Virus genome (UHGV): UHGV-1374956
Reading direction: 5' to 3' (one strand)
DNA length: 63,304 bases
Origin: a virus
The translations under genes were made by a program, and so were the position numbers. This document shows, one piece after another, positions 4,758 through 36,226 of this stretch (positions are counted from its first letter, which is position 1; every line of letters starts with the position of its first letter). The notes beneath the pieces were generated by a model. It ran no database searches. It saw nothing but the letters and a program-made list of their open reading frames with translations, and had not been told where the DNA came from.

Positions 4758-4774
4758 TTATTGTATAACAAAAC
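4758..4774 (-). promoter_or_regulatory. conserved phage promoter motif (copy 1)
   Basis: The reverse complement reads TTTTGTTATACAATAAA, with an extended -10-like TGTTATACAAT. Sits 25-40 nt upstream of an RBS. Confidence 0.45.
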
Positions 4775-5081
4775 CAATAAAATTGCAACTAATTCAACTT
4801 AACAACATTTAAAACAGTATTTTCTTCTTCCATATAATTTGTAACAAATTCCTCTAAATTCATATTAGAATCCACGATAGCAGATTGTATTTTAACCATA
4901 ATAGAATTTGATTCTTTGTTATTTATATAAGAAATTAAATATTTATTCTTCATTTGCAAGTTTTCTCCTTCTTGTTATTTCCATACATACATCATTCAAT
5001 TTACCATAATCACTTAAGACAATATTAGCAACTCCAGGCAATAATTCTTGCATAATTTCATCTAATTGATTATAAAATTCT

Positions 5082-5330
5082 TTATCTGTCATCTTGTAAA
5101 TCCTTTCTACTTTCAGGGTCTTTACCACATTTCCAACATACATAATTTTTAGTGGCTATTTCACCACAATGAGGACAAATATAAAAGTCAGAACTAAAAC
5201 AATTATACAAACCACGTTCTAACCATGCTATTTTAAGATTCAATTCATCCACTTTTTTAGCATACGCTCTATTTTGACAATTACAACAAATATTTTGGCA
5301 ATCATATTGTTGACATTCAGCATAATTCAT
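5082..5330 (-). CDS. Cys-rich Zn-binding small protein
   Basis: Multiple CxxC pairs (CQNICCNCQ, CPHCG, CWKCG). Confidence 0.45.
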   Translation of the reverse strand: MNYAECQQYDCQNICCNCQNRAYAKKVDELNLKIAWLERGLYNCFSSDFYICPHCGEIATKNYVCWKCGKDPESRKDLQDDR

Positions 5331-5524
5331 TATACATCTCCAAAAAATTCATTCTGTAATACTTGTAAAAATTCCTGCTCAGACAATCCTTCACTAGAAT
5401 TTATCATCATAAAATCATCAGACTTATCTATTTTATCTATTTTGTTATAAATATTTTGCAATTCAGGGCTTCTTTTATTACTTGATAAATTAAAACAATT
5501 AGTTAAAAATTTTATAATATTCAT
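5330..5524 (-). CDS. hypothetical protein
   Basis: 64-aa ORF whose stop overlaps the start of the neighbouring gene. Confidence 0.35.
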   Translation of the reverse strand: MNIIKFLTNCFNLSSNKRSPELQNIYNKIDKIDKSDDFMMINSSEGLSEQEFLQVLQNEFFGDV

Positions 5525-5733
5525 TCTACCACCTTATACATTTCGCATTTAGTTCTATTTTTATCTAATATTATACTTTGAAATTCCTGTCCACAATTTT
5601 CACAAACTAGGTCCGTTGGTAATTTATGGAAATACGGTTCATCCGGGTGAGGGTCATACAATGCTATAACTTTACCTTGTTTACAAATAGGGCATTGACA
5701 CAATGTTTCTTTTGGTATTAGATTATTTTTCAT
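5521..5733 (-). CDS. Zn-ribbon small protein
   Basis: CQCPICKQ ... CENCGQ. Confidence 0.45.
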   Translation of the reverse strand: MKNNLIPKETLCQCPICKQGKVIALYDPHPDEPYFHKLPTDLVCENCGQEFQSIILDKNRTKCEMYKVVE

Positions 5734-6071
5734 TTTACTGCCTCGTTTAATTTCTTTTGTAATTGTGAAATATTATGTCTTAATCTCAATATTTCTTTAT
5801 CTTTTTCTACTATTGTATGAGATAATTGACATATTTGATTACGACAACCTTCATCATCTATAATTGAATAACCTCTATTTTCTAATTCATTTATGAGTTG
5901 TTTTATTTTATATGCTTTTATAGATTCAAATTCACATAGACTCAATGTTGTAACACATTCATATTCAACTAACAATTTTTTCTGCACATATATTATAATA
6001 TCAGAAATTGATATGCTTTTTACTATACTTGAAATATCAAAAAGCATGGGAAACTGATTTTCAATATTCAT
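5730..6071 (-). CDS. hypothetical protein
   Basis: 113-aa ORF with a coiled-coil C-terminus. Confidence 0.4.
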   Translation of the reverse strand: MNIENQFPMLFDISSIVKSISISDIIIYVQKKLLVEYECVTTLSLCEFESIKAYKIKQLINELENRGYSIIDDEGCRNQICQLSHTIVEKDKEILRLRHNISQLQKKLNEAVK

Positions 6072-6259
6072 TTTATTGCCTCCGGAATAAAACTTGCTCC
6101 GTGTGCTTCTATTCTTAATATATCTACTAATTTATTAAAACCATCAGCTAAACCAATTCTAAATTTGGTTTCCTTTGTAGTTTCATCAATTGTTTTGACT
6201 ATGCCTATACAATGCCCTCCTGATGTAGTGTACCACCAACTGTCTATTACTCTACTCAT
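6068..6259 (-). CDS. hypothetical protein
   Basis: 63-aa ORF overlapping its neighbour. Confidence 0.35.
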   Translation of the reverse strand: MSRVIDSWWYTTSGGHCIGIVKTIDETTKETKFRIGLADGFNKLVDILRIEAHGASFIPEAIK

Positions 6260-6473
6260 CGTCTTCTTCCTCAGTTAAACCTAATTTTTCATTACATTTA
6301 TCTATCATTTCCATTGATAAACATAATAACATATCATAATCACCAGAAGTAGCTTTCTTTCTATATTCTGCAATTTCCGAAGAATTATATCCAGCTTTTC
6401 TCATTGCACTGGCAGTATAACCCATAACATTAAACGCATTACCATCTATACCTACTAAATTAAACGCTTTCAT
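6252..6473 (-). CDS. hypothetical acidic protein
   Basis: 73-aa ORF with an acidic tail EEEDDE. Confidence 0.35.
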   Translation of the reverse strand: MKAFNLVGIDGNAFNVMGYTASAMRKAGYNSSEIAEYRKKATSGDYDMLLCLSMEMIDKCNEKLGLTEEEDDE

Positions 6474-6630
6474 CTTTTAACCTTTCTTCCAAATTATTTG
6501 GACATTTACTACAATCTCTATTGGTATATTCATATACCGGACACATTAAACATAATTCTTTTTGAACTATATTTAAAACAACTTCAATTGGTACTTGTTT
6601 ATTAGTTTTTAATAACATATAAAATTATAC

Positions 6631-7026
6631 CTATTTAATACTTCTACTAAATCTACCAGCTTCTAAAATAGGTAAAGAGCCTTCTGTTGGAACATAAATA
6701 ACCTGATTTTGTGTATTTTCCATAGTTTGAATATACAAATACATCAAATATTCATGATTACCTTTTAATGAACTACCTATAATTTGGTTAGCTTGTGCCA
6801 CTCCTTTTGCTCTCTCAATTTCCGCCTGTGCTTCATATGTTGCACTTTCTTTCTTAGCTTTAGCTTCTGTTACTTGAATTTGTTTTGTTTGATTAGCTTC
6901 TATCAATTTTGCTTTACCTGCATATTGAGCCTGCCAAACTTGATATTTTGGAATTCCAAAGGCCGCACTAACTACCAATGCTACAATTACTATAAAACCT
7001 ATACATCCTGCTACGAAATCATCCAT
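6631..7026 (-). CDS. membrane-anchored coiled-coil protein
   Basis: N-terminal TM segment CIGFIVIVALVVSAAF followed by an A/K/E/Q-rich helix. Confidence 0.45.
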   Translation of the reverse strand: MDDFVAGCIGFIVIVALVVSAAFGIPKYQVWQAQYAGKAKLIEANQTKQIQVTEAKAKKESATYEAQAEIERAKGVAQANQIIGSSLKGNHEYLMYLYIQTMENTQNQVIYVPTEGSLPILEAGRFSRSIK

Positions 7027-7040
7027 TTTTAATAATCCTC

Positions 7041-7337
7041 CTATAATTTATTTCTAGTTCCTACGCTTTTATTAGTTTTGTCTATTAACTTATAAAACAC
7101 TTTTATGAGTGCTTTCTTTTGTTTAAATGTACCTTGATACATAACTTGTTCTGCTAATTTTTCTATACCTACTTTGTTGAAATTAAAGTCATATTCTATT
7201 TCTTCAATATCACTTACAACTTCATGTTTGGCACAATCTAAACAATACCTTGGGTAACCAGGAGTGTCACCATCAATAACACTCCCGCATACTTGGCACA
7301 ATGTGCCGTCTAACATCATTTCTGCTATTTCGCCCAT
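7041..7337 (-). CDS. Zn-ribbon protein
   Basis: CQVCGS ... CLDCAKHE. Confidence 0.45.
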   Translation of the reverse strand: MGEIAEMMLDGTLCQVCGSVIDGDTPGYPRYCLDCAKHEVVSDIEEIEYDFNFNKVGIEKLAEQVMYQGTFKQKKALIKVFYKLIDKTNKSVGTRNKL

Positions 7338-7771
7338 TATTCTTGAACCTCTTCTTTTGGTTCTGGTTCATATAATTTTACGATTTCTTCTTTGCAAGAA
7401 TAATAAGAATCACCTTCTAATTCAACAAATTTATCATAGTGAGTTACATTTGGTCTGCAAATATTTAGAATATCTTCAAAATTAGTTCTTTTACAAGCTA
7501 CTGGATAGAGTTTACTATTAGCATATACATTTTCAAATTTATACACTTCATCATCGTTACAAAAATCTATAACTAAATAATTAGTTAAATCACTGCATAC
7601 TTTATTTATAAATTTTAGATAATGTTCTGCCAAGTGCTTTGGAACTGCAACTTTTGGCATTTCTATTATCACTAAATTTTCTTCTTTTAATTCTACCTTA
7701 GACGCCATTATTCTTCTCCTTTTGTTAATTGTGCCAATAACCCTTCTGGACTTAATGATTCCATTATACAT
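7337..7771 (-). CDS. hypothetical protein
   Basis: 144-aa ORF. Confidence 0.4.
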   Translation of the reverse strand: MYNGIIKSRRVIGTINKRRRIMASKVELKEENLVIIEMPKVAVPKHLAEHYLKFINKVCSDLTNYLVIDFCNDDEVYKFENVYANSKLYPVACKRTNFEDILNICRPNVTHYDKFVELEGDSYYSCKEEIVKLYEPEPKEEVQE

Positions 7772-7962
7772 TCACCTTGAATTTTATCAATTTCTGAAAT
7801 AGGAATCACATCTACTCCATTTGCTTTATACTTTTCTTTTAACTCTTGTAACTTTACTTGAAATTTTAATGCTGTATCAATTGATAAAGTCATCATAAAG
7901 TTGTGAGGGTTAGACATACCTTCGTTTTTTTTGTCACTGTTAAACATTTTTGTCTCCTTTTC

Positions 7963-8088
7963 TTATACTAATTTTTCTATTATTATTGCAGGGTCTATAT
8001 CTGTATTATCTTGAATATACTCAAATATCTCAACTATACCTGCTCCATTTTCCATAAGTTCTTCTACTTCTTCTATTATCTCTTCCAT
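7963..8088 (-). CDS. small acidic protein (start reassigned to the internal Met with an AAAGGAGA RBS)
   Basis: AAAGGAGATATCATG lies inside the longer ORF-track call 7963..8181. The conserved promoter motif sits upstream. Confidence 0.4.
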   Translation of the reverse strand: MEEIIEEVEELMENGAGIVEIFEYIQDNTDIDPAIIIEKLV

Positions 8089-8123
8089 GATATCTCCTTT
8101 CGTTTGTTTGCTGTTGACATTAT

Positions 8124-8138
8124 TTATTGTATATAAAC
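8124..8138 (-). promoter_or_regulatory. conserved promoter motif (copy 2)
   Basis: TTTATATACAATAAA on the minus strand. Confidence 0.45.
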
Positions 8139-8347
8139 GGTTAGATAATAAAAGTAGTTCAGTAAATAAGTTTACGAACACTTATTATTCTATCATGATA
8201 TAGGTTCATACAATATCGTAATAGTAAAATAATCCTCACATTCTGACTGAAATATATTAACAACCTTTATTGATTCTTTTAATATAAATTCATTAACTTC
8301 TTGTTCTAACTTCTCTATATTTACGCTACTAAATATTTTAATTAACA

Positions 8348-8686
8348 TTATTCCTCCTCACCGTCTATAAGTTCAAAACAACCACCTAAAAACATCATAA
8401 CCTTATTAAATTGTGCATAATTACACCTTAATTCTTTTTCTCTTGCCTGTATCATTGGATTTTCCAGGTCTGTTGTAAAACTTAAATGAAGGTACTCATT
8501 ATTTAACCAGCATTTAAATATACCTACACACCTCCAATCCAAAGTATAGATGTAAATCATACGGCTGTTATTTGTAATATCTACGGACACACTTTGAAAA
8601 TCAAGTGCTTTACATTCCTTTTTGATTTCATTTCTAATAATCTTTTTAAATTCGTTGTTTTTCATTATTTTTACTCCAATTTGCAT
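8348..8686 (-). CDS. hypothetical protein
   Basis: 112-aa ORF. Confidence 0.35.
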   Translation of the reverse strand: MQIGVKIMKNNEFKKIIRNEIKKECKALDFQSVSVDITNNSRMIYIYTLDWRCVGIFKCWLNNEYLHLSFTTDLENPMIQAREKELRCNYAQFNKVMMFLGGCFELIDGEEE

Positions 8687-8898
8687 TTACCCATTCTATC
8701 ATATATTGTAATTTTTGATTACTTACTTGAGCAACATTATACCACATATCTCTTTCTGCTTTTATTTTACTGTAATCAATCCATAATTGTTTATAATGTT
8801 CATGTTCTTCTTCACTCATTAACCATTGTCTTAAATTTTTATCATTACAAAATAAATTAAAAACAACTTGACACATTGTTTGTTTGAAATAGAACCAT

Positions 8899-9480
8899 TT
8901 ACTTGCCATTTTCAATCTCCTTTATATACATAGTTTTAAAATAATCTAATTTCATTATTTTATCCTTTTCCTCTTCATAACTATAAAATTCTATAGGAAA
9001 TTTCCTTTTTCTATCATTTATACCTGTCCACTTAATACGTACATTTTCTAAAGTTTTATGCTTAAAGTTACAACCAATATCTTCATAGTTTAAACCCCAT
9101 TCTTGACATTTTTTACGGTCTTTCTTTTCTTTCTGTTTTGCCCGCTGTTGTTTTCTTTGTGCTGTTTCTTCATCATCTAATAATTGTCTTACAATTACAC
9201 CAAATTGTCCTTTAACCCAATTATAGTAATAACACCAACCGTCCTTTTCATAATCACCAAAATGAACAGAGTCTCTTACTACTTTATACTTATATGGACA
9301 ATCAAATAACCAACTTTTAACAATAGTAATCCATTCATTAGTAACTCTTTTACTTTCAGAATATCTATATTTTCTAATTAAATTATGCCAGAAAGAATTA
9401 TCCTTGTCTATATACCTATAATATTTAATTTTAAGCACTTCTCTTTCTTCTACAGTTAGCTTACAATCATCTATAGCCAT
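8899..9480 (-). CDS. hypothetical protein
   Basis: 193-aa ORF with a basic KQKEKKDRKK patch. Confidence 0.4.
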   Translation of the reverse strand: MAIDDCKLTVEEREVLKIKYYRYIDKDNSFWHNLIRKYRYSESKRVTNEWITIVKSWLFDCPYKYKVVRDSVHFGDYEKDGWCYYYNWVKGQFGVIVRQLLDDEETAQRKQQRAKQKEKKDRKKCQEWGLNYEDIGCNFKHKTLENVRIKWTGINDRKRKFPIEFYSYEEEKDKIMKLDYFKTMYIKEIENGK

Positions 9481-11954: not shown

Positions 11955-11960
11955 ATTATG

Positions 11961-12485
11961 CTAATTGCATAATCGCTTACAAACTTTTTCACGCTCCTCA
12001 ACTGTCATCTTTTTCATATTATTTGCAACTTTAATTTCTGTTTCTAAAAGTTCTTTAACTGTATTTAATTCTAAGTCTCTAACAAAACAATGTTCACCGT
12101 CTGCTAATTTACAAACTACACGTGAAAGTCTTGTTTTTAACCAATCTGTAACAATATTTAATTCTGCGGTAGAGAAAGTGTTTGAAGTATCTTCTTGCTG
12201 TTCTACATTATTAAAACACATATTATTTAATTTTTTAAACATTGAACATAATATACCAGGGTCAGGATTAGGTACTCTAAGCGGTTCAAAAGGTGTATCA
12301 CCATATTTTGGATTTTTCATACTACCACTTATTAAACCCAATCTAATAAGTCTACATTTACAAGCAAACCATGTTCTACCTAACTGTTCACCCATTTGTG
12401 TAAATGAAAAATGATTATAAAACATTTTCTCTAATTTCTTGTCTTCACTTTTCGTCCATTCTTTACCGTGTCTTTCTAATGACAT
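11961..12485 (-). CDS. hypothetical protein
   Basis: 174-aa ORF. Confidence 0.4.
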   Translation of the reverse strand: MSLERHGKEWTKSEDKKLEKMFYNHFSFTQMGEQLGRTWFACKCRLIRLGLISGSMKNPKYGDTPFEPLRVPNPDPGILCSMFKKLNNMCFNNVEQQEDTSNTFSTAELNIVTDWLKTRLSRVVCKLADGEHCFVRDLELNTVKELLETEIKVANNMKKMTVEEREKVCKRLCN

Positions 12486-12486
12486 A

Positions 12487-12669: not shown

Positions 12670-12710
12670 AATGTCTCCTTTTGTTCGTTGCTTTTGTACT
12701 TTTGCTATAT

Positions 12711-12729
12711 TTTTATTGTATAACATAAA
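12711..12729 (-). promoter_or_regulatory. conserved promoter motif (copy 3)
   Basis: TTTATGTTATACAATAAAA on the minus strand. Confidence 0.45.
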
Positions 12730-12924
12730 TTAAGCTATGCACGATTTTTTGGTAATTTATTTACGAATGCTTTACCTTCTATCTGTATGCTATTAAAGTC
12801 AAAGCGTGTATTTCTACACGCCTTTAAAATTTGACTTTATATGAACAAAATATTGCCAGTCTTTCCTGGCTGTCATCTACACTCCGGAAATATACACCAC
12901 GTAGTACACACGTTGAAAGGAGCC

Positions 12925-13704: not shown

Positions 13705-13746
13705 GCAAATTCTCCTTTCTTTTTCATTGCATTTTTAATTTACTTA

Positions 13747-13763
13747 TTTATTGTATAACATAA
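13747..13763 (-). promoter_or_regulatory. conserved promoter motif (copy 4)
   Basis: TTATGTTATACAATAAA, with TTGTAA 16 nt upstream. Confidence 0.45.
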
Positions 13764-13834
13764 TTAAAATTTTACAATATATTCTTAATAATTTTTTACA
13801 TTTTATCTATACCATAAGTGCCAAGTTTCCTCAA

Positions 13835-14173: not shown

Positions 14174-14299
14174 GTAAACCTCCGCTATTTAAAGATTGTA
14201 GGTACTTTTTATAACAAGTTAAGCCAAAACCTCTTTGAATACTTTCTTTACTCTTAAGCAACCTACCACAATATCTACAATATTTAGTTGATACTTCCT

Positions 14300-18043: not shown

Positions 18044-18212
18044 TGAGCATGACTCTCACATTTATTAAACATAGCCAACAAAGTTTCTACTTGTAAATCT
18101 TTATGAGCTTCTAATAATTCATGTATTGCCTCTCCTAGTGTGACATAAATATTTTGATAATAGTTTGAAATAACGATTACCGGTTTCATATTTACCTCTT
18201 TTTCCGTTGCTT

Positions 18213-18230
18213 AATTATTGTATAACAAAA
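18213..18230 (-). promoter_or_regulatory. conserved promoter motif (copy 5)
   Basis: TTTTGTTATACAATAATT. Confidence 0.45.
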
Positions 18231-22493: not shown

Positions 22494-23093
22494 TTATCTC
22501 TCCTTTACTATACTATTTAATACTTCATCTTTTAATGGAGTATCGTATCTAAATCTACCTCTTAAACAGTTTGTTCTAGTTATTGAACGACGACTTTTTA
22601 TACCTCTTGCAGTCATACAAGAGTGAATTCCATCTATAACAACCATTATATCTTCCATACCTAATAATTCTAAGATTTCGCAAATATCCATTCCAATTCT
22701 TTCCTGAACTTGAAGTCTTTTACATACTAAATCAACAATTCTAGCAAATTTAGATAATCCTAGCACTTTTCCACCCTTTGGAATATAGGCAATATGCACA
22801 TTGAGCCTCATCAAAGCACAATGATGTTCACAATGTGAATAAGCTTCAATGTTATTTACCATTACAAGGTCATCTCCGCCTATTTCAAACTGTTTATTAA
22901 ATTTCTCAGCTATATCTTCATTTGAATATTTACAACCCTCAAACAATTCTTTAAAATAACCTACCATTCTTTCAGGTGTTTCTTGCAACCCTTCTCTATT
23001 AGGGTCTTTGTCTATTTCTACTAATAGCTTTTCAAATATTTTAAGCATATTTTGTTCATTTAACATTATACACCTCTTTCTTCTGGATTCCAT
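22494..23093 (-). CDS. folE: GTP cyclohydrolase I
   Basis: CEHH and QVQERI motifs; GLSKFARIVD. Confidence 0.85.
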   Translation of the reverse strand: MESRRKRCIMLNEQNMLKIFEKLLVEIDKDPNREGLQETPERMVGYFKELFEGCKYSNEDIAEKFNKQFEIGGDDLVMVNNIEAYSHCEHHCALMRLNVHIAYIPKGGKVLGLSKFARIVDLVCKRLQVQERIGMDICEILELLGMEDIMVVIDGIHSCMTARGIKSRRSITRTNCLRGRFRYDTPLKDEVLNSIVKER

Positions 23094-23737
23094 ACAATTT
23101 TATGTAATTGTACTTGAAATCTAATATCAAATTTTGGGTATTTAAGTTTAAGTAATTTTACCTCTGTTACTAGATGTTCTAAACTTATCTTTCCAAAACA
23201 AGGGCTGACAAAAATAGTTCCTTTAAAAGATGTATGATGTATTAAAAATTGGCTAATAACACTAATATCATTATCGTCAGACACTACAAATTTTAATACA
23301 TCGTTTTCGTCCATTGTTTGAAAATTTGATTCGCACATTTCATGTTCCATTCCAGAACTTGGACATTTATAATCTACAGTAAAGAACCCTCTGCCCGCTC
23401 TTACTGCAAATACAAACGGCATAATATCTATACTTCCATTAGTTTCAATGTTTATATAATGCCCTGTTTTATTTAATTTATCAATAAGTTCTTTAACACA
23501 ATCTGTATGAAGTAAAGGTTCTCCGCCAGTAATTGTTACGGCTTGAAACCTTACTTTATCCACAATATCATCTATAGACATTAACTGTCCATCTGTTACT
23601 TTTTGAGCATAAGTGGTATCGCAATAAGAACATCTTAAATTACAACCAGCCAATCTAATAAATGTAACTGGCATACCTGTTCTTATTCCTTCACCTTCTA
23701 TGCTATGAAATATTTCTACTACATTTAAACTTGTCAT
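23066..23737 (-). CDS. queE: 7-carboxy-7-deazaguanine synthase (radical SAM)
   Basis: CNLRCSYCDT (CxxxCxxC). Confidence 0.8.
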   Translation of the reverse strand: MTSLNVVEIFHSIEGEGIRTGMPVTFIRLAGCNLRCSYCDTTYAQKVTDGQLMSIDDIVDKVRFQAVTITGGEPLLHTDCVKELIDKLNKTGHYINIETNGSIDIMPFVFAVRAGRGFFTVDYKCPSSGMEHEMCESNFQTMDENDVLKFVVSDDNDISVISQFLIHHTSFKGTIFVSPCFGKISLEHLVTEVKLLKLKYPKFDIRFQVQLHKIVWNPEERGV

Positions 23738-24102
23738 TAGTATCTACTCCATTCTGCAATATTACCTTCACTTTCTTGTACAGTAACACAAGAACACCAA
23801 GTAGTTTCTTTTCCTGTGTCCTTACAATACTCATCAATTTTTTCAGCTATCCAACAAGCTATATTTTCAGCTGTTGGATTAAAATCAAAGATTTCATTTA
23901 AGTTTTTATGGTCTAAAATATCATGTATAGTCCTTTTAATGTGAGTAAAATCTACAAGCATACCATTATTATCTAATTTTTGACCTTGTACTTCTACTAC
24001 AATAATCCAATTATGCCCATGAAGATTTTCACATTTGCTTTGATAGTCCAATTTTAATTGATGACTTCCAGCAATTTCCATTCTTTTACGAACTTTATAC
24101 AT
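23737..24102 (-). CDS. queD: 6-carboxy-5,6,7,8-tetrahydropterin synthase
   Basis: CENLHGHNW (CxxxHGH); 121 aa. Confidence 0.8.
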
Positions 24103-24760
24103 TACTACCTTCTTTCTCTTCCATATATTCTTTATAACCCCTTTCTCTTAATTTGCATGAAGGGCATTCGTGACATCCACCTTCTACTCCATTATAACAA
24201 GTATGAGTATTATTATAAATATAATCCAAATAACCTAATTCATCTGCCAACTGCCAGGTTTGTTTTTTGTTTAAATACATTAACGGTGTAATTATATTAA
24301 ATTGGTAATCCATAGCCAATGATAATGTTTGTTGTAAAGAATCAATAAACACCCTACGACAATCCGGATATCCACTAAAATCAGTTTCACAACAACCTGT
24401 AATAATATCGTGAGCTCCAATTGATTTGGCATAAATGGCCGCAATAGATAAAAATACATGATTTCTACCATCTACAAAAGTATTAGGATATTTTTCACCT
24501 TGCTTAATATCTAATTCTGTATTAACTAAAGAACAATTGGTTAAGCCTTCAAATATACTTGTTACATTTATTAAATTATAACTTACCCCTAAATCATTTG
24601 CTATCTTTTTAGCCTTTTCTAATTCGTTCCAATGCTTTTGTCCATAAAAGAAAGAAATTGTAAATACGTTCTCTTTTCCGTATGTTTTAATAGCTTGCAC
24701 CAAACAAGTGGTACTGTCTTGTCCTCCACTAAATACCACAACTGCTTTTGATTCACTCAT
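24095..24760 (-). CDS. queC: 7-cyano-7-deazaguanine (preQ0) synthase
   Basis: [15 protein letters not shown]-loop and C-terminal CxxC. Confidence 0.85.
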
Positions 24761-24794
24761 CTTCTATCTCCTTTCAACCCAAACTAGGTTATTT

Positions 24795-24812
24795 AATTAT
24801 TGTATTACAAAA
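24795..24812 (-). promoter_or_regulatory. conserved promoter motif (copy 6, upstream of the que operon)
   Basis: TTTTGTAATACAATAATT. Confidence 0.45.
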
Positions 24813-24881
24813 GTGGTTTAAAAGTAAAGCCTAAGGTTACCGATTCTTAACAAACAATCAGTAACCCTGGCATATATGGAA

Positions 24882-26459
24882 TTAAGAATTAAATCCTGTT
24901 TCTAATTCTTTTAATTGTCTTTGTAATTCTAATTCATGGTATTGTTCTTCACCATTGCTGTATGTTGCGAATGGATGTATAGCAATTCCACCACGTGGAG
25001 TAAATAAACCTTTTACTTCTAAATATTTAGGTTCTAATAATTTAACTAAATCTTTCATAATAATATTTACACAATCTTCATGAAAATCACCATGATTTCT
25101 AAAACTAAATAAATAAAGTTTAAGAGATTTACTTTCCACCATTTTTCTATTTGGAATGTATTTAATATGAATATCTGCAAAATCTGGTTGACCTGTTTTT
25201 GGACAAAGACTTGTAAATTCATAAGCATTAAATTTAACTACATAATCATTATCCGGATGTTTATTTTCAAACCATTCTAAAACAGATGGGTCATAATCAT
25301 ATTTATAATTAGTATTTTTAGAGCCTAAACCTTTAACAGTACCAAATTCTTCGCCCTCTCTACCTGCTGTACTTTCAATTTCTTCAATAGGTTGTGTATC
25401 TGCATTTGCCATCTCAAATATATCTTGTACTGCAACTCTAGTCTCTTGAGCTTTTGCTTCCATTTGTTTTAAATGCTCTTCTCTTTGCTGTTCCATAATC
25501 TCCGCCTTTCTAATAAGTTCTTTTTGTTGTTCTATTGTTTTAGGTTTTAACTTAAACAATGTTTTCTTTTTAATTTCTGTGCCTTTGTATTGGTAATTTT
25601 TAGCCCAATCCATTAAATAAGCTATATTAAATTTACATCTTTCTTGGTAACTTTCTTTAAGTTCTTCAAAATTAAACTTATACTTTTTGCATAATGATTT
25701 AATTTGCTGAATTTCAGCTTCCGGTTGGTGTATAATATGTTGAGGATTATCCAACTGTTTTGAGCTCATTACGACTGTTCCATAAGGTGTCATAATTCCA
25801 CCATTAGCACCTGTCATAATCCAACTTGTAGAATCTGCACTGGTAAACGGATATCTTTCTAATACTGGTAAAGACGTCATACCAAAAGCGTGTGTTTTTA
25901 CATTTGGATTAGAGCTTTGTCCTATAATTCTAAATACTTGCTCAAACCATTCATTTTTCTCTTTAGTAGACCTATCGTTGGCGGGTGATACTCCTATATA
26001 AGGAATATGTTTACCTTCAAAAGTTGTTTCCAACATTCTAACTAACCAGTCAAAGTCTTCATTTTGGTGAAATACTGGCAATATTTTATCCGCACTTTTT
26101 ACACGTTCACGCATATACAAATAATTTTCCCAACCAATTAAGGGAGCTTCTAGACATTGTTTACGTGTTTTAGCTTTTCTAAATTCACCAGGAATTTTAT
26201 CCAATTCGGCCGCTATATAAACATAATCATCTATACTATTTAAGAATTCAATATATTTATCTATATCTACTTCTTTGCCTACTGTATGAGCTGAAAATGC
26301 ACCTGAATCAATAAATAATTTACCCTTACCGTTATTTGCTATCCACGCATCTATAACATTTCTATCATTTATCCAGCTAGCAAGTCTATTGGCTCTTTTA
26401 GCTAATAAATATTCTCTCCAAGCTGGGTTATCACTGCCCGCAAAATATAAATCAAACAT
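24882..26459 (-). CDS. DpdA-like DNA-guanine transglycosylase fused to NADPH-dependent preQ0 reductase QueF
   Basis: N-terminal ~330 aa carry the TGT-like DSGAFS motif. C-terminal ~150 aa carry QueF motifs [14 protein letters not shown] and ESKSLKLYL. Confidence 0.7.
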
Positions 26460-28716: not shown

Positions 28717-28718
28717 AA

Positions 28719-29414: not shown

Positions 29415-29473
29415 AATCTTCTCCTTCTTTTTTAATTGTACGTTCTGACTACGAAGAGCCTTATGTATATTAT

Positions 29474-29490
29474 TTATTGTATAGCATAAT
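29474..29490 (-). promoter_or_regulatory. conserved promoter motif (copy 7)
   Basis: TTATGCTATACAATAAA. Confidence 0.45.
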
Positions 29491-29529
29491 TTTTAAAATG
29501 CAATAGTTTATTAAATCTTATTTACACTT

Positions 29530-30480
29530 CTAACCTGCCATTCTCATTATACTTACAAATTCATCTTCAGTCAAATCATTAACATCCTTACCTTCCGGAA
29601 TTTGTAAATCTACTATCATTTTACCTTTCACATTATTCCTAAATCGTTGCCTTCCTTTATCTCCAGCTTCATCAGGGTCTAATGCTAATAAAAATTTTCT
29701 AATATGACAATTTTGTAAAATAGGATACTGCTCAAAACTACCTGTACCTATTAAAGCTATGGCAGGAATACCCCAAGTCCAACAAGTTAAGGCATTTATT
29801 ATTGATTCACATACCACCACCTGTGTAATGTCGCTTGAGATGAAGTTCAAACCATATATAGGTTTACTTACATCTCTTGGATAATTAAAGAATTTGGTAT
29901 TTACGCTTCGTCTTGCTACAAAAACACATCTACCTTTTTCATCCCATACTGGAAATGTTACACACTGATTTTCACTATCATAACCTACATCAAATTTTTC
30001 TATAATTTCATCAGTCAATTTACGTTTATACATATAAGGATGAATATATCTATAGGTATCCAATTCTTTTTCAGTTACAAATACCTGTTTTGGTTTTGTT
30101 CTACTTAAATTTAAAGAAAAACCTTTCCTTTTTTCTACTTCCATTGAAACAAAGTTTTCTAATATCCAACGTTTACCATATTCACCTTTATCGTTATAGC
30201 CAAAACAATCACTCACAAATTCTTTAAAATTTGCTACATAACCACAAGTAAAGCAATGAACAGTACCTACAGAAGTTCCATTACTTGCATTCAAATTTAT
30301 ACCACAAGACGGTTTTCTTTCTCTTCCATCTTTATGAATTGGACAACATACTTGAATATTACCATGTGTCTTTTTAATTACATTTAGTTTATCTATACCT
30401 CTATTATGTAATTCTGTTCTTAATGTTTCCAATATTGTCATTTCGTTTTCTAAAATAGGTATATCGTCAATCATTAACAT
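29530..30480 (-). CDS. DNA primase (Zn-finger + TOPRIM)
   Basis: CCPIHKDGRERKPSCGIN CHC2 zinc finger followed by an acidic TOPRIM-like core. Confidence 0.65.
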   Translation of the reverse strand: MLMIDDIPILENEMTILETLRTELHNRGIDKLNVIKKTHGNIQVCCPIHKDGRERKPSCGINLNASNGTSVGTVHCFTCGYVANFKEFVSDCFGYNDKGEYGKRWILENFVSMEVEKRKGFSLNLSRTKPKQVFVTEKELDTYRYIHPYMYKRKLTDEIIEKFDVGYDSENQCVTFPVWDEKGRCVFVARRSVNTKFFNYPRDVSKPIYGLNFISSDITQVVVCESIINALTCWTWGIPAIALIGTGSFEQYPILQNCHIRKFLLALDPDEAGDKGRQRFRNNVKGKMIVDLQIPEGKDVNDLTEDEFVSIMRMAG

Positions 30481-31853
30481 TAAAATACCTCACTTCCGGG
30501 TCTTTGCATATTACCACGTCTTCTACTTGCTGGAACTTTTCTTGGACTTTCATCCTCACTATGTGAATTTACACCTTCTGGATTGTATTCAAACAATCCT
30601 TTGTCTATATTCCATAAATAAGCAACTTTATCCCCCAATGCCAAGTTCCTATTTTTTGCCATCTTTAATAATAAATTCCCATCATTTTGACACATAGAAA
30701 TTACACGAGTAGCGATTTGACCTATACTATCAGATTCCGCAATATGTTCCAATCTAGGTAATTTATCTTTTTCTGCATCTTCCCCGACTGCTTTTCTACC
30801 TGCTTGACACGTGTACACAATAGGCACACCTAAACGCATTGTTATATCTAAAGATTCTTGCATAACCTCTTCAAACTGTAAACGTCTATCTCTAGATTTT
30901 GTGGTTGGCTGTACGTTATATAACTGGTCAACAAATAAAATATCTAAATTTTCTTTTTCTATAAATGCTTGTAGCTTGGCGGTTGTAGGTCTTCCATTAA
31001 AATCTTCTTGCGTTGTAACAAAAATAGGTGTCTCTTGTTTTTGGAGATAATCTATATAATCTTTGTATGCACCGTGAACAACTTTATTTCCACGCTGTAA
31101 ACAAGTATTAGAAATATGACTATCTAATGTATCCAAACGATAACCTACATCTGTTTTACTCATCTCTCCACTATATATTCCTACACGTTTACCTTGATGC
31201 CAAGACGCTAACGCAAATTTATCAATAATCCAAGATTTACCTTGGTTTGGTCTAGCTAATAAAATAACTAAATCATTCTGTTTGAACCCTCCCATTATTT
31301 CATCAAATTCTGGAAAACCACACTTAATAAAATATTCGTCTTGATTATCTAGCATAGCTTCGTATTCTTGTAAACGAATTGGGGATTTCTCTACTATATC
31401 AAAAGAATTTAAAGGTGTGATTCCAGCAAGTTTAGGAATTTCCTGCTGTAAAAATTCTACTGCTTTCTGTGCATCAGATTCTAATAACGGTTCTATCTTT
31501 TTAAGAGTTATACAACTCATTCTAAATGTATGTTGCTCGTAAATTCGGTCTACAAGGTACTGGTCACTTTCTTGTACATCAAAAATTGTAAAGTCTGGAA
31601 ACTCAATAGCTATTGTAGATATATCAGGCACTTGTTTATACTTTTTAACGTGTTCGGAAATAAAATCGTATAAAGGTCTATACTTAACAAAAAAGCTACC
31701 ATCAATATTATTTGAATTAAGAATCATCATGGATTTGGAACTTAATACCTTACACAAGATACTACATTCTGCACCTTTGTCTTCCATCAATTCTATATAG
31801 TCTTCTTTGATACTACCGTCTTTATTAGTAATTTCCTTTTCTATATCACTCAT
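30480..31853 (-). CDS. DnaB-family replicative helicase
   Basis: LLARPNQGKSWI Walker A; RecA-like fold with DnaB-like C-terminal organisation. Confidence 0.7.
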   Translation of the reverse strand: MSDIEKEITNKDGSIKEDYIELMEDKGAECSILCKVLSSKSMMILNSNNIDGSFFVKYRPLYDFISEHVKKYKQVPDISTIAIEFPDFTIFDVQESDQYLVDRIYEQHTFRMSCITLKKIEPLLESDAQKAVEFLQQEIPKLAGITPLNSFDIVEKSPIRLQEYEAMLDNQDEYFIKCGFPEFDEIMGGFKQNDLVILLARPNQGKSWIIDKFALASWHQGKRVGIYSGEMSKTDVGYRLDTLDSHISNTCLQRGNKVVHGAYKDYIDYLQKQETPIFVTTQEDFNGRPTTAKLQAFIEKENLDILFVDQLYNVQPTTKSRDRRLQFEEVMQESLDITMRLGVPIVYTCQAGRKAVGEDAEKDKLPRLEHIAESDSIGQIATRVISMCQNDGNLLLKMAKNRNLALGDKVAYLWNIDKGLFEYNPEGVNSHSEDESPRKVPASRRRGNMQRPGSEVF

Positions 31854-32559
31854 CTCTACCTCTCAAACTGTCAGATTTTAATGTTATGACTGTACTTAAC
31901 CTAACTATTCTATCATATAACCTTTCCCCTAAATTAGCTTTGAGAGTGTCTCCTTGCAAATTAGTGGTAAAAATACTACTTAAACCTTTTAAAATTCTTG
32001 ATTCTATAATAGTGCTTAATATTAGTAAATCATAATCTTTTAAAGGTAAACAAGCTATATCATCAAAATGTACCAATGGACAATTTTGGGTTATATACTG
32101 TATTTTATCCCAATTTGAATTCTTATTTGAAATTGACTGTCTTGCTTGTAATAACAAATCAGGCACATAAACAAAATAAGCTGGTGGAACTGTGCTTGAA
32201 GAACCCTTGCTATTAAGTTCAATTTGCTTTTGTAATAACTTAATACCCCAACTTGTTTTGCCATTACCACATTTCTCAGACTGTAACAACAAATTCTTTC
32301 CTTTTGATACAAAATCTTCTAAATTATTTCTTATATCTACAATTTTGGATATCTCTTCTTTATCCTTTGGTACAGATTTTAAACTAAATGGATTCCAAAA
32401 TTTTTCTGGTAAATTGCTATTTTCAAAATGAGCTTTCATATTTTTGTAAATAGGACAATGCTCATCACACCAGTCTGTATTTAAACCTTTTATACAAGTT
32501 TCTGGTTCTTCTTCAGTATCACCTATATAATAGTACCAACAATCTGTATTCATTACCAA
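31846..32559 (-). CDS. helicase-loader-like ATPase (DnaC/IstB-like) with N-terminal Cys cluster
   Basis: SEKCGNGKTSWG P-loop; placed between the initiator and the helicase. Confidence 0.5.
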   Translation of the reverse strand: MVMNTDCWYYYIGDTEEEPETCIKGLNTDWCDEHCPIYKNMKAHFENSNLPEKFWNPFSLKSVPKDKEEISKIVDIRNNLEDFVSKGKNLLLQSEKCGNGKTSWGIKLLQKQIELNSKGSSSTVPPAYFVYVPDLLLQARQSISNKNSNWDKIQYITQNCPLVHFDDIACLPLKDYDLLILSTIIESRILKGLSSIFTTNLQGDTLKANLGERLYDRIVRLSTVITLKSDSLRGRDE

Positions 32560-33470
32560 ATCTCCTCAATATTACCTTCTTCGTCTCTAACAAAATCACC
32601 CTCGTATGCTTTACTTACAACACTAGATTCAGATAAAACCTTATTGTAATAACTTGGCTTGAATACCGTCTTATAATTACCTGTTATATTGTATTCGCAT
32701 ATTATTTCAATTCCCTTAGGTACATTATTTGCCATTTTACAAATCTGGTTTACTTTGTGTTTTAAAGTTGTTTTTGGTAAGTTATAAGTATCCAAACAAA
32801 ATAAACAATAATCTTCCAATGCTTTTTTGGTTTCTGGATAGTCATTCCATTCATTTAATTTTGCCTGAATCTCATTTGGTATTTTTGCACTTGCTTTTAT
32901 CACCGGAGCCTTAACCCGAGGGGCCTGAGGCGCAGGTTGGCTTGGTTGGGATATTTGATTATTATTCCCTAATATATTAGTTTTATTCGAATTTTCCCCC
33001 ATACCCGTAGGGTTATTTGATGTAATATTATATGTATTATTTAATGTATTATTATATGCAAGATTTTTTGGGGAGCCCTCCAAATTTTCTTGCATAGGGT
33101 GGTCAAGATTTTTTGGGGAGCCCTCCAAATTTTCTTGCATAGGGTGGTCAAGATTTTTTGGGGAGCCCTCCAAATTTTCTTGCATAGGGTGGTCAACGAT
33201 TCTTAAATACCTATTTACCACCTCTTTACTGTTTTCTGCATATACAATTTCTCTACTAATAAATTTATTATCTATTAACTCGTTTATCCAATTATTTATA
33301 GATGTTTTAGATACACCATACAAACTTGAAAAATATGCGTTGCTTGCGTAACAATAGCCATGTTTATTGCTCAATGCAGTTATCTCACCATATAGTAATT
33401 TTGCATTTGGTGTAATATTTGAATACCTAACAGTGGCGGGAATTATGGCATAATAATTAGGATTTTCCAT
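32553..33470 (-). CDS. replisome organiser / replication initiator (phage_rep_org_N-like)
   Basis: N-terminus YYAIIPATVRYSNITPNAKLLYGEITALSNKHGYCYASN matches the phage replisome-organiser wHTH domain. Contains a 15-aa unit, DHPMQENLEGSPKNL, repeated three times. Confidence 0.65.
   Translation of the reverse strand: MENPNYYAIIPATVRYSNITPNAKLLYGEITALSNKHGYCYASNAYFSSLYGVSKTSINNWINELIDNKFISREIVYAENSKEVVNRYLRIVDHPMQENLEGSPKNLDHPMQENLEGSPKNLDHPMQENLEGSPKNLAYNNTLNNTYNITSNNPTGMGENSNKTNILGNNNQISQPSQPAPQAPRVKAPVIKASAKIPNEIQAKLNEWNDYPETKKALEDYCLFCLDTYNLPKTTLKHKVNQICKMANNVPKGIEIICEYNITGNYKTVFKPSYYNKVLSESSVVSKAYEGDFVRDEEGNIEEIW
33062..33196. repeat. 3 x 45-bp perfect tandem direct repeats (putative origin iterons) inside the initiator gene
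   Basis: gattttttggggagccctccaaattttcttgcatagggtggtcaa x3, read directly from the sequence. Confidence 0.9.
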
Positions 33471-33787
33471 TTAATAACTCCTCTCTACATTAAAGGGTGG
33501 CGGGAATAACTCCCGCCGTGGTGGACCGAGATATTATTTTCCAGGTAATACCAGCCCTTTATCCTCTATATAACTTTTGACTTTCCTCTATTTTATTCTC
33601 TACTTCTGTAATTACTTTCTCCCAACATTCTTCATTTATTTTAGCTATATTAGTGTCGTCTTCAATATTTACAGATATAGAATGTTCAAAAGAGTTCCAC
33701 AAATTATCAGATATTGCATAACTTAATTTCATAGAATAAGTTGCATTAGTTATAGAATATCCTTTTGGCTTTTCCTCTAATTTAGCT

Positions 33788-34201
33788 TTAGTCATTTTCT
33801 TTCTCCTTTTTAATAACTTTTGTATAAAGTGAGACAGTAGTTTTGATAATTTGTGCTGGTTCTAATTTTTTAGCTTCAATACAACCATTATAAATAAAAG
33901 ATTCAAGAGCATCAAAGTCTACATATTCTTTAGTTTTAATGACATTTTTTAAATCATATTTTTTACAATTTTCTTTAAGAATTTCTATAACTTTTTCTTC
34001 GTCCATATCAATTTTATTAGAATATTGTAAATATGCTCTATAGTTATCTCCATAGAACTCATCAACATCTAATTCTTTTAATTTACCTTTAACAAAATCA
34101 CCTTTTGATTTTATTGAAGTTTCTAATTTTGCTTTGTCAGCTTTTTCTTTTGCTAAACTATCAATAGTTTTCTTTAAATTAGCTTCTTCTACTTTATTCA
34201 C
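33788..34201 (-). CDS. hypothetical protein
   Basis: 137-aa ORF. Confidence 0.4.
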   Translation of the reverse strand: MNKVEEANLKKTIDSLAKEKADKAKLETSIKSKGDFVKGKLKELDVDEFYGDNYRAYLQYSNKIDMDEEKVIEILKENCKKYDLKNVIKTKEYVDFDALESFIYNGCIEAKKLEPAQIIKTTVSLYTKVIKKEKEND

Positions 34202-34487
34202 GAGATTCTCCTTTCTTTTTGCTCCAATAATATTTTGAATTAAAATCGGACATTTGACCCCATTTTAAATTTTTTCTAAAATTTTGTAATTCAGTTACTT
34301 GTTCCAATTTAAAGTACCAAGTACCTTTTGAATCTGTAGTATAAGCAGGTAAACCTACTTCACATATTGCTTTCCCCGACTTATCTGCCCATTTATACCA
34401 CCTTTTAATAGTGGCTGAACTGCAATTAAGCATGAGGGCTGTACGGGTTATTGAAAGCAAATCATTATGTATATTCCAATTCTCCAT
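34194..34487 (-). CDS. HTH DNA-binding protein (AlpA/Xis-like HTH_17)
   Basis: LSITRTALMLNCSSATIKRWYKW. Confidence 0.4.
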   Translation of the reverse strand: MENWNIHNDLLSITRTALMLNCSSATIKRWYKWADKSGKAICEVGLPAYTTDSKGTWYFKLEQVTELQNFRKNLKWGQMSDFNSKYYWSKKKGESRE

Positions 34488-36224
34488 TTATTCCTCTCCT
34501 AATACTCTTAATAATAATTCATTTATGAATTGTTTGTTGGTTGTTTGTCCATCTATAAAATAGCTGGCTAGCTCACCTTTTTTCATAACAATTTCATTTA
34601 CTACTTCATCAATTGTGTCTTGACATAATAATGTATAGACATTTACTGTTTTTGTAGTTCCTATTCTATGGCATCTATCACTTCCTTGTCTTTTATTAGC
34701 ATCATTCCAAGGTTCATCCAAGAAGATTACATTGTTTCCAGCTGTCAAAGTTATACCGGTACCCATAGCTTGTCTGGTACCTAACAACACTTTACAATTT
34801 TCGTCATTTTGGAATTTTTGTACTGCCAAATCTCTTTCTGCTAATTTAATATCTCCAGTTATTTTACCTGGATTGTATTTTTTACATCTATTAAATGCTT
34901 CGTCAATTATTTGAGAAAATTCACTAAATACAACAACTTTTTCGTCATTCTTAACACAATCTTCAATAATTTGTAACATCATATCTAATTTAGATGTTTG
35001 TGTAGCTGTGGAACTTAATAAACCACTAAACCCAGTTACTTGGCGTAATCTTGTTAATTGAGCCAACGGGTTTGGACTTAATTTAATTTTATCAATTTGT
35101 TCTCTTAAAGCTGTAACCACTTCGTCATAAAGTTTCCATTCTTCTTTTGACATTTCTACATAAATAGGAATATCATTCTTAGGTGGTAAATCTAAAACAT
35201 CTTCTTTTTTGCGACGTAGCATACAAGTATTTAATTTTTGAATAATTTCATTTTTATGTTTATACCCAATTATTTGATGGTCTCCAAAACCCCCAAATAT
35301 GCAATAATGATTTTTGTATTGCGTAAATGTATGATTTTCTAATCCTAGCCACTTAAAAATAATATATAAATCTTCAATAGAATTCATTAAAGGTGTTCCG
35401 CTTATTGCAATACGTTCTTTAGACAATAATTTTTGGAATCCTTTTCCTTGTTGCGAATTTGGGTTTTTGCATTTATGGATTTCGTCTGCAATAACCATTC
35501 CAATTTCACCACTTCTACACATTCTTTGAAGTTGATTAGCTAATTCTATATTTCTTAAAGACTCTACGTTTACAATTATAAAAAAGTTATCAACTCCATT
35601 AACTAAATCTTCCATCTTTTCTTTAGTATCTTTAAAAGTTAATTTACCTTTATTTCTTCCTCTTGTAATAACACGTTGACCTAAAATATAAGGTTCTTCA
35701 TTGGTGTGTGTTTTAATTTCATGGCACCAGTTTAATTTTAAGTTATTTACACCTACAACAATTAAACAATGCTTAAACCAATTTTGTTCTCTTTTAGCGA
35801 GGGCAATATTTAATGTTTGGAATGTTTTTCCTAATCCTTGGTCATCTGCTAATAACCATTTCTCGCTGTTCATTCCATAATTAAAGCCTTCTATTTGATG
35901 TTGCCTTGGTTGTGTTTTATATAAATGTAGGACACCACAATCTTTGCATTTCTCGCTGTTGTTTGTACTACCTATAATAGTAAGTTGGTCATGTATATCA
36001 AAATCAACTTTTGCGAATGCTAATTGCTGTTTTAAACTTTCTAAACAATTAAAAGGCAGTTCCCACATTTTCGTTTTTGGGTGCCAAAATTTCTTTTCGA
36101 AACCTCTCATTATACACACTATTTTTGCATCATAAGGAAACGTCACTAATAGTGCCTTATCGGTTTTTAAGTTTATTGGTAAATCTATAAGAATTTTTAC
36201 TGCCATACATTTATTGTATAACAT
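34488..36224 (-). CDS. SNF2-family DEAD/H helicase
   Basis: LLADDQGLGKT motif I, DEIH motif II and C-terminal helicase motifs. The true start is probably Met7 (ATGGCA at 36206), because the conserved promoter motif covers codons 1-6. Confidence 0.75.
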   Translation of the reverse strand: MLYNKCMAVKILIDLPINLKTDKALLVTFPYDAKIVCIMRGFEKKFWHPKTKMWELPFNCLESLKQQLAFAKVDFDIHDQLTIIGSTNNSEKCKDCGVLHLYKTQPRQHQIEGFNYGMNSEKWLLADDQGLGKTFQTLNIALAKREQNWFKHCLIVVGVNNLKLNWCHEIKTHTNEEPYILGQRVITRGRNKGKLTFKDTKEKMEDLVNGVDNFFIIVNVESLRNIELANQLQRMCRSGEIGMVIADEIHKCKNPNSQQGKGFQKLLSKERIAISGTPLMNSIEDLYIIFKWLGLENHTFTQYKNHYCIFGGFGDHQIIGYKHKNEIIQKLNTCMLRRKKEDVLDLPPKNDIPIYVEMSKEEWKLYDEVVTALREQIDKIKLSPNPLAQLTRLRQVTGFSGLLSSTATQTSKLDMMLQIIEDCVKNDEKVVVFSEFSQIIDEAFNRCKKYNPGKITGDIKLAERDLAVQKFQNDENCKVLLGTRQAMGTGITLTAGNNVIFLDEPWNDANKRQGSDRCHRIGTTKTVNVYTLLCQDTIDEVVNEIVMKKGELASYFIDGQTTNKQFINELLLRVLGEE

Positions 36225-36226
36225 AA
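36210..36226 (-). promoter_or_regulatory. conserved promoter motif (copy 8, abuts the SNF2 start codon)
   Basis: TTATGTTATACAATAAA followed directly by TGTATGGCA. Confidence 0.45.

Follow-up and report, generated by a model that had tools for sequence, protein, structure and literature searches.

The uncultivated phage genome UHGV-1374956 is a stretch of 63,304 nucleotides, referred to below as the window. A short motif recurs eight times in its replication half and is very probably a promoter element. This is indicated by its orientation, its intergenic position, its conservation at orthologous sites, the spacing of the -35 boxes that accompany some copies, and a fixed distance between the -10 hexamer and the ATG at a gene lacking a Shine-Dalgarno sequence. 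The reading that we prefer, with a probability of about 0.7, is that the motif forms the core of eight sigma-70/sigma-A promoters, which the host holoenzyme would read and each of which would open a transcription unit. The copies themselves, their orientation, position and conservation, and the spacing rules that they follow are established directly. A first-pass annotation of the same DNA, made by a model from the letters alone, had also proposed a phage promoter, and its claims are taken up where they bear on the results.

The window contains exactly eight copies, starting at positions 4758, 8124, 12713, 13748, 18215, 24797, 29474 and 36211, which read TT(T/A)TGTTA-TACAAT-AA(A/T) on the minus strand; the earlier count of eight was correct, with coordinates right to 0–2 nt. 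The exact 13-mer TTATTGTATAACA occurs five times on the plus strand (4758, 12713, 13748, 18215 and 36211) where 0.01 occurrences are expected, and copies with one or two mismatches to it lie at 8124, 24797 and 29474. The eight copies were used to build a 22-nt weight matrix; in a scan of both strands with it they scored 20.9–28.6 bits, all on the minus strand, and the next best site on either strand reached 10.2; the top score in 40 shuffles was 19.2. Since the matrix was trained on the same eight sites, the independent test is the count of the exact 13-mer against its expectation. A 14-mer scan of IMG/VR gave only single chance matches among the matches listed, and a literature search with the string TGTTATACAAT returned no relevant paper.

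All copies are oriented with the genes and are confined to 4.7–36.2 kb. Although non-coding DNA makes up only about 4.5 % of the window, the eight lie without exception outside genuine coding sequence, as had been claimed. Mechanically called open reading frames (ORFs) do cross the copies at 8124, 12713 and 36211, but Shine-Dalgarno-led or conserved starts lie downstream of them. Restriction to the replication half, likewise proposed earlier, holds both in the window and in the loci of relatives. From the low-coordinate end of the motif to the start codon the distances are, in ascending order of the copies, 25, 36, 44, 44, 26, 37, 60 and 5 nt. A distance of 25–45 nt to a start with a strong ribosome-binding site (RBS), as first described, thus fits six of the eight; the copy at 29474 is farthest from its start codon and the one at 36211 has no RBS. 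With the start of transcription (+1) set 7 nt past the hexamer, the first seven leaders would measure 20, 31, 39, 39, 21, 32 and 55 nt and end in a GGAG-type RBS, the copy at 36211 being the sole exception to this arrangement.

In the proposed scheme, host RNA polymerase holoenzyme would read eight promoters of the sigma-70/sigma-A type, whose units would together cover the half of the genome that holds replication, nucleotide-metabolism and small accessory genes, from 36.2 down to about 0.4 kb on the minus strand. TACAAT would serve as the -10 hexamer (positions -12 to -7), with transcription starting about 7 nt downstream. Some copies would use a TTGCAA-like -35 box at 16–17 bp; the others would presumably rely on the block formed by T-20, T-19, T-17, G-16, T-15, T-14 and A-13 together with A-6 and A-5. 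The first unit would start at the A of the ATG of an SNF2 helicase gene and yield a leaderless mRNA, and the remaining seven would carry leaders of 20–55 nt ending in a Shine-Dalgarno sequence.

A probable host-type -10 hexamer with a displaced TG

The sigma-A -10 pattern TAnAAT, with A-11 and T-7, is present as TACAAT in all eight copies. Across 30 non-identical sites from eight lineages T-12, A-11, A-9, A-8 and T-7 are invariant; T-20, T-19, T-17, T-15, T-14, A-13, A-6 and A-5 are fixed or nearly so, and G-16 is found in 28 of the 30, but because these sites were gathered with the window-trained matrix, the conservation of the core is partly circular and is checked independently by the gene-anchored alignments described below. 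At position -10 the same sites carry C in 28 cases, A in one and T in one, a degree of variation that a sigma-A -10 would be expected to tolerate.

The -35 region gives a second indication. When spacers of 8 to 25 bp upstream of TACAAT were examined at 25 sites, matches to TTGCAA of at least 5/6 appeared at nine of them, in every case 16–17 bp away. They take the forms TTGCAA, TTGCAT and TTGTAA, the remaining sites carrying weak boxes. Within the window, TTGCAA lies at 4783–4788, 17 bp upstream of the hexamer of the copy at 4758, TTGTAA at 13772–13777 and TTGCAT at 29498–29503, each 16 bp upstream of its TACAAT (these and all following motif-associated features are on the minus strand). Canonical-looking sites in the structural half show a matching geometry, TTGCAA/TTGTAA/TTGCTA-17-TATAAT. 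The confinement of the boxes to 16–17 bp, as in those structural-half sites, argues that TACAAT is the -10 element. The statement that the motif has no conserved -35 was thus too strong, since about a third of the sites have one.

The description of the motif as an extended -10 needs correction as well. In Firmicutes sigma-A promoters with -10 extensions are the norm, and in their TRTGnTATAAT form the TRTG lies one nucleotide upstream of the hexamer, with TG at -15/-14 (PMC5036317); the positions given elsewhere are T-17 G-16 T-15 G-14 (PMC6212719). With TACAAT as the reference, 28 of the 30 sites have their TG at -17/-16, so that the gap to the hexamer is 3 nt instead of the canonical 1 nt. 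Deleting CA from TATACAAT leaves TATAAT. The motif looks like a composite. Its 5' half is identical to sites of this phage that are truly of the extended -10 type (TTATGTTATAAT at 62–90, and the site upstream of the gp25-like gene in relatives), and its 3' half is, the C apart, identical to the TATAATAAAT sites at 58.4, 60.0 and 38.1 kb.

Several points weigh against the host-promoter reading besides the partial circularity of the 30-site logo. A -35 box is weak or absent at most copies. The TG lies two bp upstream of the place where sigma region 3 reads TRTGnTATAAT (PMC5036317, PMC6212719), and the alternative register TGt-TATACA, in which the TG becomes canonical, loses T-7 and puts the -35 boxes at 14–15 bp. 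A generic sigma-70 scan gave 142 matches against 126 expected, that is, chance level in AT-rich DNA. The comparison with sigma-A uses the Firmicute consensus, which may not be that of the host, and all start sites, as well as the polymerase with its sigma factor and the timing, are ones that we infer. Finally, sixteen nearly invariant positions, among them G-16, C-10, A-6 and A-5, exceed the known needs of sigma-A, and this keeps an additional reader in play.

One form that such a reader could take is a phage DNA-binding protein that switches all eight units together through an operator embedded in a sigma-A promoter. We regard this as unlikely, though it is the foremost of the rival explanations. 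The extra bases T-17 G-16 T-15 and A-11 C-10 A-9 would then be the arms of a dyad, TGT-N3-ACA centred on -13, with A-6 and A-5 in addition. G-16 and C-10 are indeed the most informative positions of the motif (2.3 and 2.2 bits), they lie symmetrically about -13, and sigma-A needs neither of them; since the structural-half sites have TATAAT, the C at -10 is specific to this class. However, with arms of only 3–4 bp and a distance of 7 bp from half-site to half-site, the dyad is small for a regulator that binds as a dimer, and the centre (-14, -13) is as conserved as the arms, so that no symmetry-specific pattern emerges. Moreover, the copy at 8124 lacks the left arm and that at 29474 has C at -15, both being otherwise intact. 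Candidate regulators do exist in the form of two small proteins, one of 97 aa resembling HTH_17 and one of 174 aa weakly resembling Myb and GcrA, but their matches are all below significance and neither is tied to the motif.

A putative leaderless start at the SNF2 helicase gene

The copy at 36211 provides the strongest indirect evidence that the motif is a promoter and that transcription would begin 7 nt past TACAAT. Upstream of the SNF2 helicase gene the sequence runs TACAAT-N6-ATGGCAGT without a Shine-Dalgarno sequence, the ATG occupying 36204–36206. The spacing of 6 nt between hexamer and ATG is exact in seven lineages, although the bases that fill it vary (AAATGT, AAATTT, ATTAAT, AAAATT), and substitutions downstream fall mostly at third codon positions. 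A conserved TACAAT-N6-ATG lacking a Shine-Dalgarno sequence points to a leaderless mRNA that would begin at the A of the ATG. In the distant clade L136 the SNF2 gene has an ordinary Shine-Dalgarno sequence and no motif. Gene callers often let the SNF2 ORF run on across the motif, or across the terminator ahead of it as well, giving products of 577–607 aa, and the motif thus corrects the start of this gene.

Conservation in related phages

The loci compared in relatives were those around DNA polymerase, ligase, a baseplate-region protein and SNF2. The motif is found there at orthologous intergenic sites and on the gene strand, in metagenomic relatives of 62–64.5 kb whose DNA polymerase is 75–90 % and whose ligase is 57–77 % identical. 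In alignments anchored on the genes, the motif block is kept while the surrounding non-coding DNA has diverged, and judged by this pattern the motif is under purifying selection. Where orthologous sites drift, the hexamer turns into TAAAAT or TATAAT with its register unchanged, which is the behaviour expected of a sigma-A -10; at two orthologous sites of lineage L124 the upstream block is altered and a TACAAT or TATAAT hexamer is still in register.

The weight matrix, run in three relatives over about 20 kb of structural genes apiece, detected no member of the family there. The sole matrix matches in the loci of these relatives were the copy upstream of SNF2 in L131 and a weak match of 12.8 bits to a TATAAT-class site of the same lineage. 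Two more distant clades lack the motif, and a crude k-mer search of L130 and L136 for a counterpart gave nothing clear.

Such retention bears on whether the motif has to do with transcription at all. It could instead serve replication, recombination or packaging, or be a mobile cassette of the intergenic DNA, its likeness to a -10 element being a coincidence. Duplicated cassettes would show similarity in their flanks, and some copies do share up to 60 nt of it (13744–13803 and 29470–29529 are 73 % identical). Against this stand the occurrence of the motif on one strand only and always upstream of gene starts, the -35 boxes at promoter spacing, the distance to the ATG fixed in seven lineages, and the orthologous retention over long divergence. 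The genome also offers better candidates for an origin or a packaging site, namely three 45-bp repeats within the initiator gene and repeats near the terminase genes. Hence we consider a non-transcriptional role scarcely credible.

Candidates for the reader of the motif

The possibility of a phage-encoded sigma or anti-sigma factor had been raised with the first description of the motif. Searches with Pfam, PHROGs and NCBIfam found neither, nor an RNA polymerase, in the window proteins searched, which were most early-half proteins (small and unannotated ones included), those of the lysis module and the reverse transcriptase; the remaining structural-half proteins were not searched directly. 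Precomputed Pfam matches for every gene in the loci of ten relatives, structural half included, likewise contained no sigma factor or RNA polymerase. A highly diverged sigma factor or polymerase could escape detection. No unassigned protein has the size needed for a single-subunit polymerase, the largest early ones, with fewer than 260 aa, being far too small. Matches to Serglycin were an artefact of the GS linkers joining concatenated ORFs. A reading by sporulation sigma factors (sigma-E/K, CATACA-T) was rejected, since the first base is T and not C, no matching -35 is present and the motif drives the main replication genes.

These searches are relevant to a further explanation, that the motif is a promoter for a phage sigma-like factor or RNA polymerase diverged beyond recognition, comparable to the gp28-dependent middle promoters of SPO1 or to T7-type promoters. 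A long invariant block directly upstream of the presumed start, combined with a weak -35, does resemble phage-specific promoters, and many early proteins have no detectable homology. Yet the domain searches were negative for the window proteins and relatives' genes that they covered, and the unassigned proteins are small. In addition, the core makes a good -10 for sigma-A, boxes of the sigma-A -35 type stand 16–17 bp from it, and where orthologous sites change, they do so towards TATAAT and TAAAAT. The very first units, too, have the motif at their head, and these must be read before any phage protein is made, unless the plus-strand module at 61865–63035 is expressed earlier. Taken together, this makes a phage-specific polymerase or sigma factor very improbable.

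The two small candidate regulators deserve a brief description. The 97-aa protein, encoded in the first unit (34194–34487), matches HTH_17 with E=0.009, which is below significance. The 174-aa protein (11961–12485, minus strand) is conserved in relatives and shows weak but concordant N-terminal matches to Myb/SANT and GcrA (Pfam GcrA, E=0.06; phrog_323, E=1e-4; PDB 5yiu, E=1.2); the protein may act as a cofactor in transcription. A PDB profile search with the two proteins returned nothing significant. One may speculate, as a rather doubtful extension of the host-promoter reading, that the motif defines a distinct promoter class in which a host-type -10 is fused to a 16-bp invariant block, and that a phage factor not recognised so far reads this block and times the replication half. 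Such a factor would read the displaced TG, C-10 and the AA at -6/-5, and might be a small DNA-binding protein or a sigma-associated cofactor, for example the 174-aa protein. If this were true, the timing of the replication half would be set off against that of the structural half with its canonical TATAAT promoters.

As regards timing in general, an early or middle activity of the eight promoters is suggested by gene content only. The motif serves small genes of no assigned function (4758, 8124) as well as replication genes. Since neither a sigma nor an anti-sigma factor turned up in the proteins searched, and since the structural half has canonical TATAAT sites with good -35 boxes that look like sigma-A promoters too, no temporal mechanism is in evidence.

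The eight predicted units

In transcription order, the first promoter of the replication half is the copy at 36211–36226 (TTATGTTATACAATAA, block -20 to -5), upstream of the SNF2 helicase gene, with TACAAT at 36213–36218 and a predicted +1 at 36206; orthologues are present in L122, L120, L124, L131, L134 and L135. Just before it, a terminator-like hairpin with a 12-bp stem and a T8 run (36263–36295) ends the upstream operon. A direct repeat, TTTACA-N4-TTTACA (36246–36261), lies at about -55 to -40 and is kept in six lineages (the window, L122, L120, L124, L131 and L135) while its neighbours diverge; at the same position L134 has another tandem repeat, TAACAAAT twice. The repeat could serve this first promoter specifically, as an UP element or a binding site for a regulator.

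The second copy (29474–29489, TTATGCTATACAATAA; predicted +1 29469) has orthologues in L121, L122, L120, L124 and L134 and a predicted leader of 55 nt to a 231-aa gene that precedes the DNA polymerase gene. The third (24797–24812, TTTTGTAATACAATAA; predicted +1 24792) also has orthologous copies in relatives and stands upstream of a QueC-like gene and the 7-deazaguanine operon. Directly upstream of it, at 24829–24871, a strong hairpin followed by TTTACTTTT resembles a terminator and is kept in L122 and L120. The fourth copy (18215–18230, TTTTGTTATACAATAA; predicted +1 18210, the G of GCAACGG) precedes a 66-aa gene and the clamp-loader block, with orthologues in L121, L122/L127, L120, L128 and L129.

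A monocistronic 259-aa gene follows the fifth copy (13748–13763, TTATGTTATACAATAA; predicted +1 13743; orthologues in L127, L128 and L129). The sixth (12713–12728, TTATGTTATACAATAA; predicted +1 12708; orthologues in L127 and L128) lies upstream of a 60-aa gene, the gene of the Myb/GcrA-like 174-aa protein, a ParB-like gene and the ligase gene. Two strong hairpins occupy the spacer ahead of it (12795–12870), one at 12855–12870 with a T-rich tail and the other at 12795–12838. This spacer, between the 259-aa gene and the promoter, comprises 198 nt of non-coding DNA (12727–12924, minus strand) without a match in Rfam.

The seventh copy (8124–8139, CGTTTATATACAATAA; predicted +1 8119) is the most divergent, lacking G-16. 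It lies upstream of a 41-aa ORF starting at 8088, and no orthologue of it was detected in L127 or L128. The last (4758–4773, TTTTGTTATACAATAA; predicted +1 4753) has an orthologue in L127 and precedes a 54-aa gene, a tRNA-Trp gene and a block of small genes. The tRNA-Trp (CCA; 4495–4565, minus strand), found by ARAGORN and Rfam, lies about 190 nt downstream of the copy. It was the sole Rfam match, no riboswitch or leader RNA being found near the motif.

That several copies follow terminators, as first noted, is true of those at 36211, 24797 and 12713 and not of the other five. The position of these three directly after terminator-like hairpins suggests that transcription is restarted there.

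In the 5' leaders an element GCAACG(A/G)A is found repeatedly, a few nucleotides ahead of the Shine-Dalgarno sequence (18205–18210, 12686–12691 and 4746–4751, minus strand). Of the nine minus-strand GCAACG sequences of the window, three are no more than 45 nt from a motif copy, and the leaders of relatives have kept the element. It may function as part of the leader or as a point at which translation is controlled.

A second set of promoter-like sites

Canonical promoter-like sites of a different class are found on the minus strand of the structural half and near the ends of the window (62–90, 38056–38085, 46356–46384, 58440–58468, 60012–60040 and 61446–61474). They have the form TTGCAA/TTGTAA/TTGCTA-17-TATAAT, some with TRTGn; true TRTGnTATAAT sites lie at 46356–46368, 61446–61474 and 62–90. 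The site at 46358, first taken for a weaker variant of the motif, does exist (TTTATGCTATAAT on the minus strand) but belongs to this separate class. It scores below 8 with the motif matrix and reads TGTACA-17-TATAAT with TATGC as TRTGn (46356–46384), upstream of the gp25-like sheath-initiator gene. It is itself conserved, its TATG(C/T)TATAAT being present in L131, L132 and L133 and thus in four lineages in all. The site at 38.1 kb is conserved in three lineages (the window, L131 and L132), and those at 58.4 and 60.0 kb have 39 nt in common.

Relation to known promoter systems

The closest parallel is the extended -10 promoter of Firmicutes (TRTGnTATAAT; Voskuil & Chambliss, summarised in PMC5036317), which likewise places a T-rich, TRTG-like element beside a TAnAAT hexamer. 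In both, the -35 is weak or dispensable and the start lies, for the motif by prediction, 6–8 nt downstream. The motif differs by its TG at -17/-16 instead of -15/-14, by the C at -10 and by the fixed positions -20, -19, -6 and -5.

The early promoters of T4 and the promoters of T5 are strong, class-specific promoters read by host sigma-70; they have been mapped experimentally and their -35 and UP regions are strongly conserved. The motif shares with them the many copies, a conservation that reaches beyond the hexamers, the use of one class per gene block and a frequent position after terminators. Its -35 is variable, however, and the class is known here from sequence alone. The promoter-early stem-loop (PeSL) cassettes of T4 are similar in being intergenic modules of hairpin and promoter with some paralogous flank similarity. 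Here, by contrast, an upstream hairpin accompanies only three of the eight copies and positions are stably orthologous, not shuffled.

Leaderless mRNAs are made from lambda PRM (cI) and from many actinobacterial genes. As at the SNF2 gene, the -10 lies about 6–7 nt upstream of an ATG without a Shine-Dalgarno sequence and the transcript begins with AUG; in the present phage this would apply to one of eight units and is suggested by conserved spacing alone. Promoters read by phage sigma factors or polymerases (SPO1 gp28 and gp33-34, T7-type) resemble the motif in having many copies and, immediately before the start, a long block that hardly varies. The differences are that no phage sigma factor or polymerase was found and that the motif is a good host -10 with host-type -35 boxes.

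The motif appears to represent a real promoter class in a new phage clade, otherwise an ordinary kind of finding, with a displaced TG, a class-specific C at -10 and a putatively leaderless first gene as its unusual details. It yields a predicted transcription map of eight units, covering the half with replication and accessory genes in a widespread, uncultivated clade of gut phages of about 63 kb, which also carries a diversity-generating retroelement and 7-deazaguanine genes. A compact, conserved promoter is moreover on offer for Firmicute expression systems, and small puzzles are posed by the TG, displaced by two bases, and by the C-10 peculiar to this class.

The phage and its relatives

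The window has about 30 % G+C and a GC skew that is negative throughout. Its minus strand holds essentially all genes between 0.2 and 61.3 kb; a four-gene module on the plus strand occupies 61.9–63.0 kb. In transcription order, the region from 61.3 to 36.3 kb encodes terminase large subunit, portal, capsid, sheath, tape measure and baseplate, then a tail fibre with a retroelement, and finally lysis genes. Below 36.3 kb follow SNF2 helicase and replication initiator; DnaB, primase and a family A DNA polymerase; 7-deazaguanine genes; sliding clamp, RecA and clamp loader; ligase; many small genes; and a terminase small subunit-like gene.

A megablast search with 12.5 kb of the window gave no DNA-level match to cultured phages. 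The DNA polymerase is 40 % identical to homologues of Clostridium phage phiCTP1 and Streptococcus phage Dp-1, and the capsid protein 49 % identical to counterparts in Brevibacillus phages. All nearest cultured phages in these two comparisons have Firmicute hosts, and the phage is provisionally assigned to low-GC Gram-positive bacteria. Genome contigs searched for relatives of the DNA polymerase contained none, hence no prophage or host clue. Relatives are frequent in metagenomes as contigs of 61–64.5 kb. In two of them the terminase small subunit gene is followed directly by the opposite-strand module, which shows the two ends of the window to be contiguous and the window thus to be a near-complete, circularly permuted genome. 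The window junction is flanked by a 42-nt repeat (14–55 and 63086–63127, 79 % identity), and GCGAGATTAA-like words recur at 63036–63304 and 1–233, between the TerS-like gene (394–1131) and the plus-strand module. These repeats may mark the packaging region.

The replication-initiator gene contains three perfect 45-bp tandem repeats (33059–33196), each with an GGGGAGCCCTCC hairpin; they encode DHPMQENLEGSPKNL three times and are candidate origin iterons. The 7-deazaguanine genes (22494–26459, minus strand), headed by one promoter copy (24797), comprise FolE-, QueE-, QueD- and QueC-like genes and a gene for a 525-aa protein with a QueF-like C-terminus (6.7e-34); the phage DNA is probably modified at guanines. 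The diversity-generating retroelement (40186–43850, minus strand) consists of a reverse transcriptase gene (40186–41439; RVT_1, 1.2e-16), a template repeat at about 41570–41688 and a variable repeat (41832–41950) at the 3' end of the fibre gene (41811–43850). The 119-nt template/variable pair is 84 % identical, with mismatches at template adenines in 15 of 21 cases over the compared stretch and 14 of 15 in the conserved core, and the fibre proteins of relatives match the Mtd domain (PF21916).

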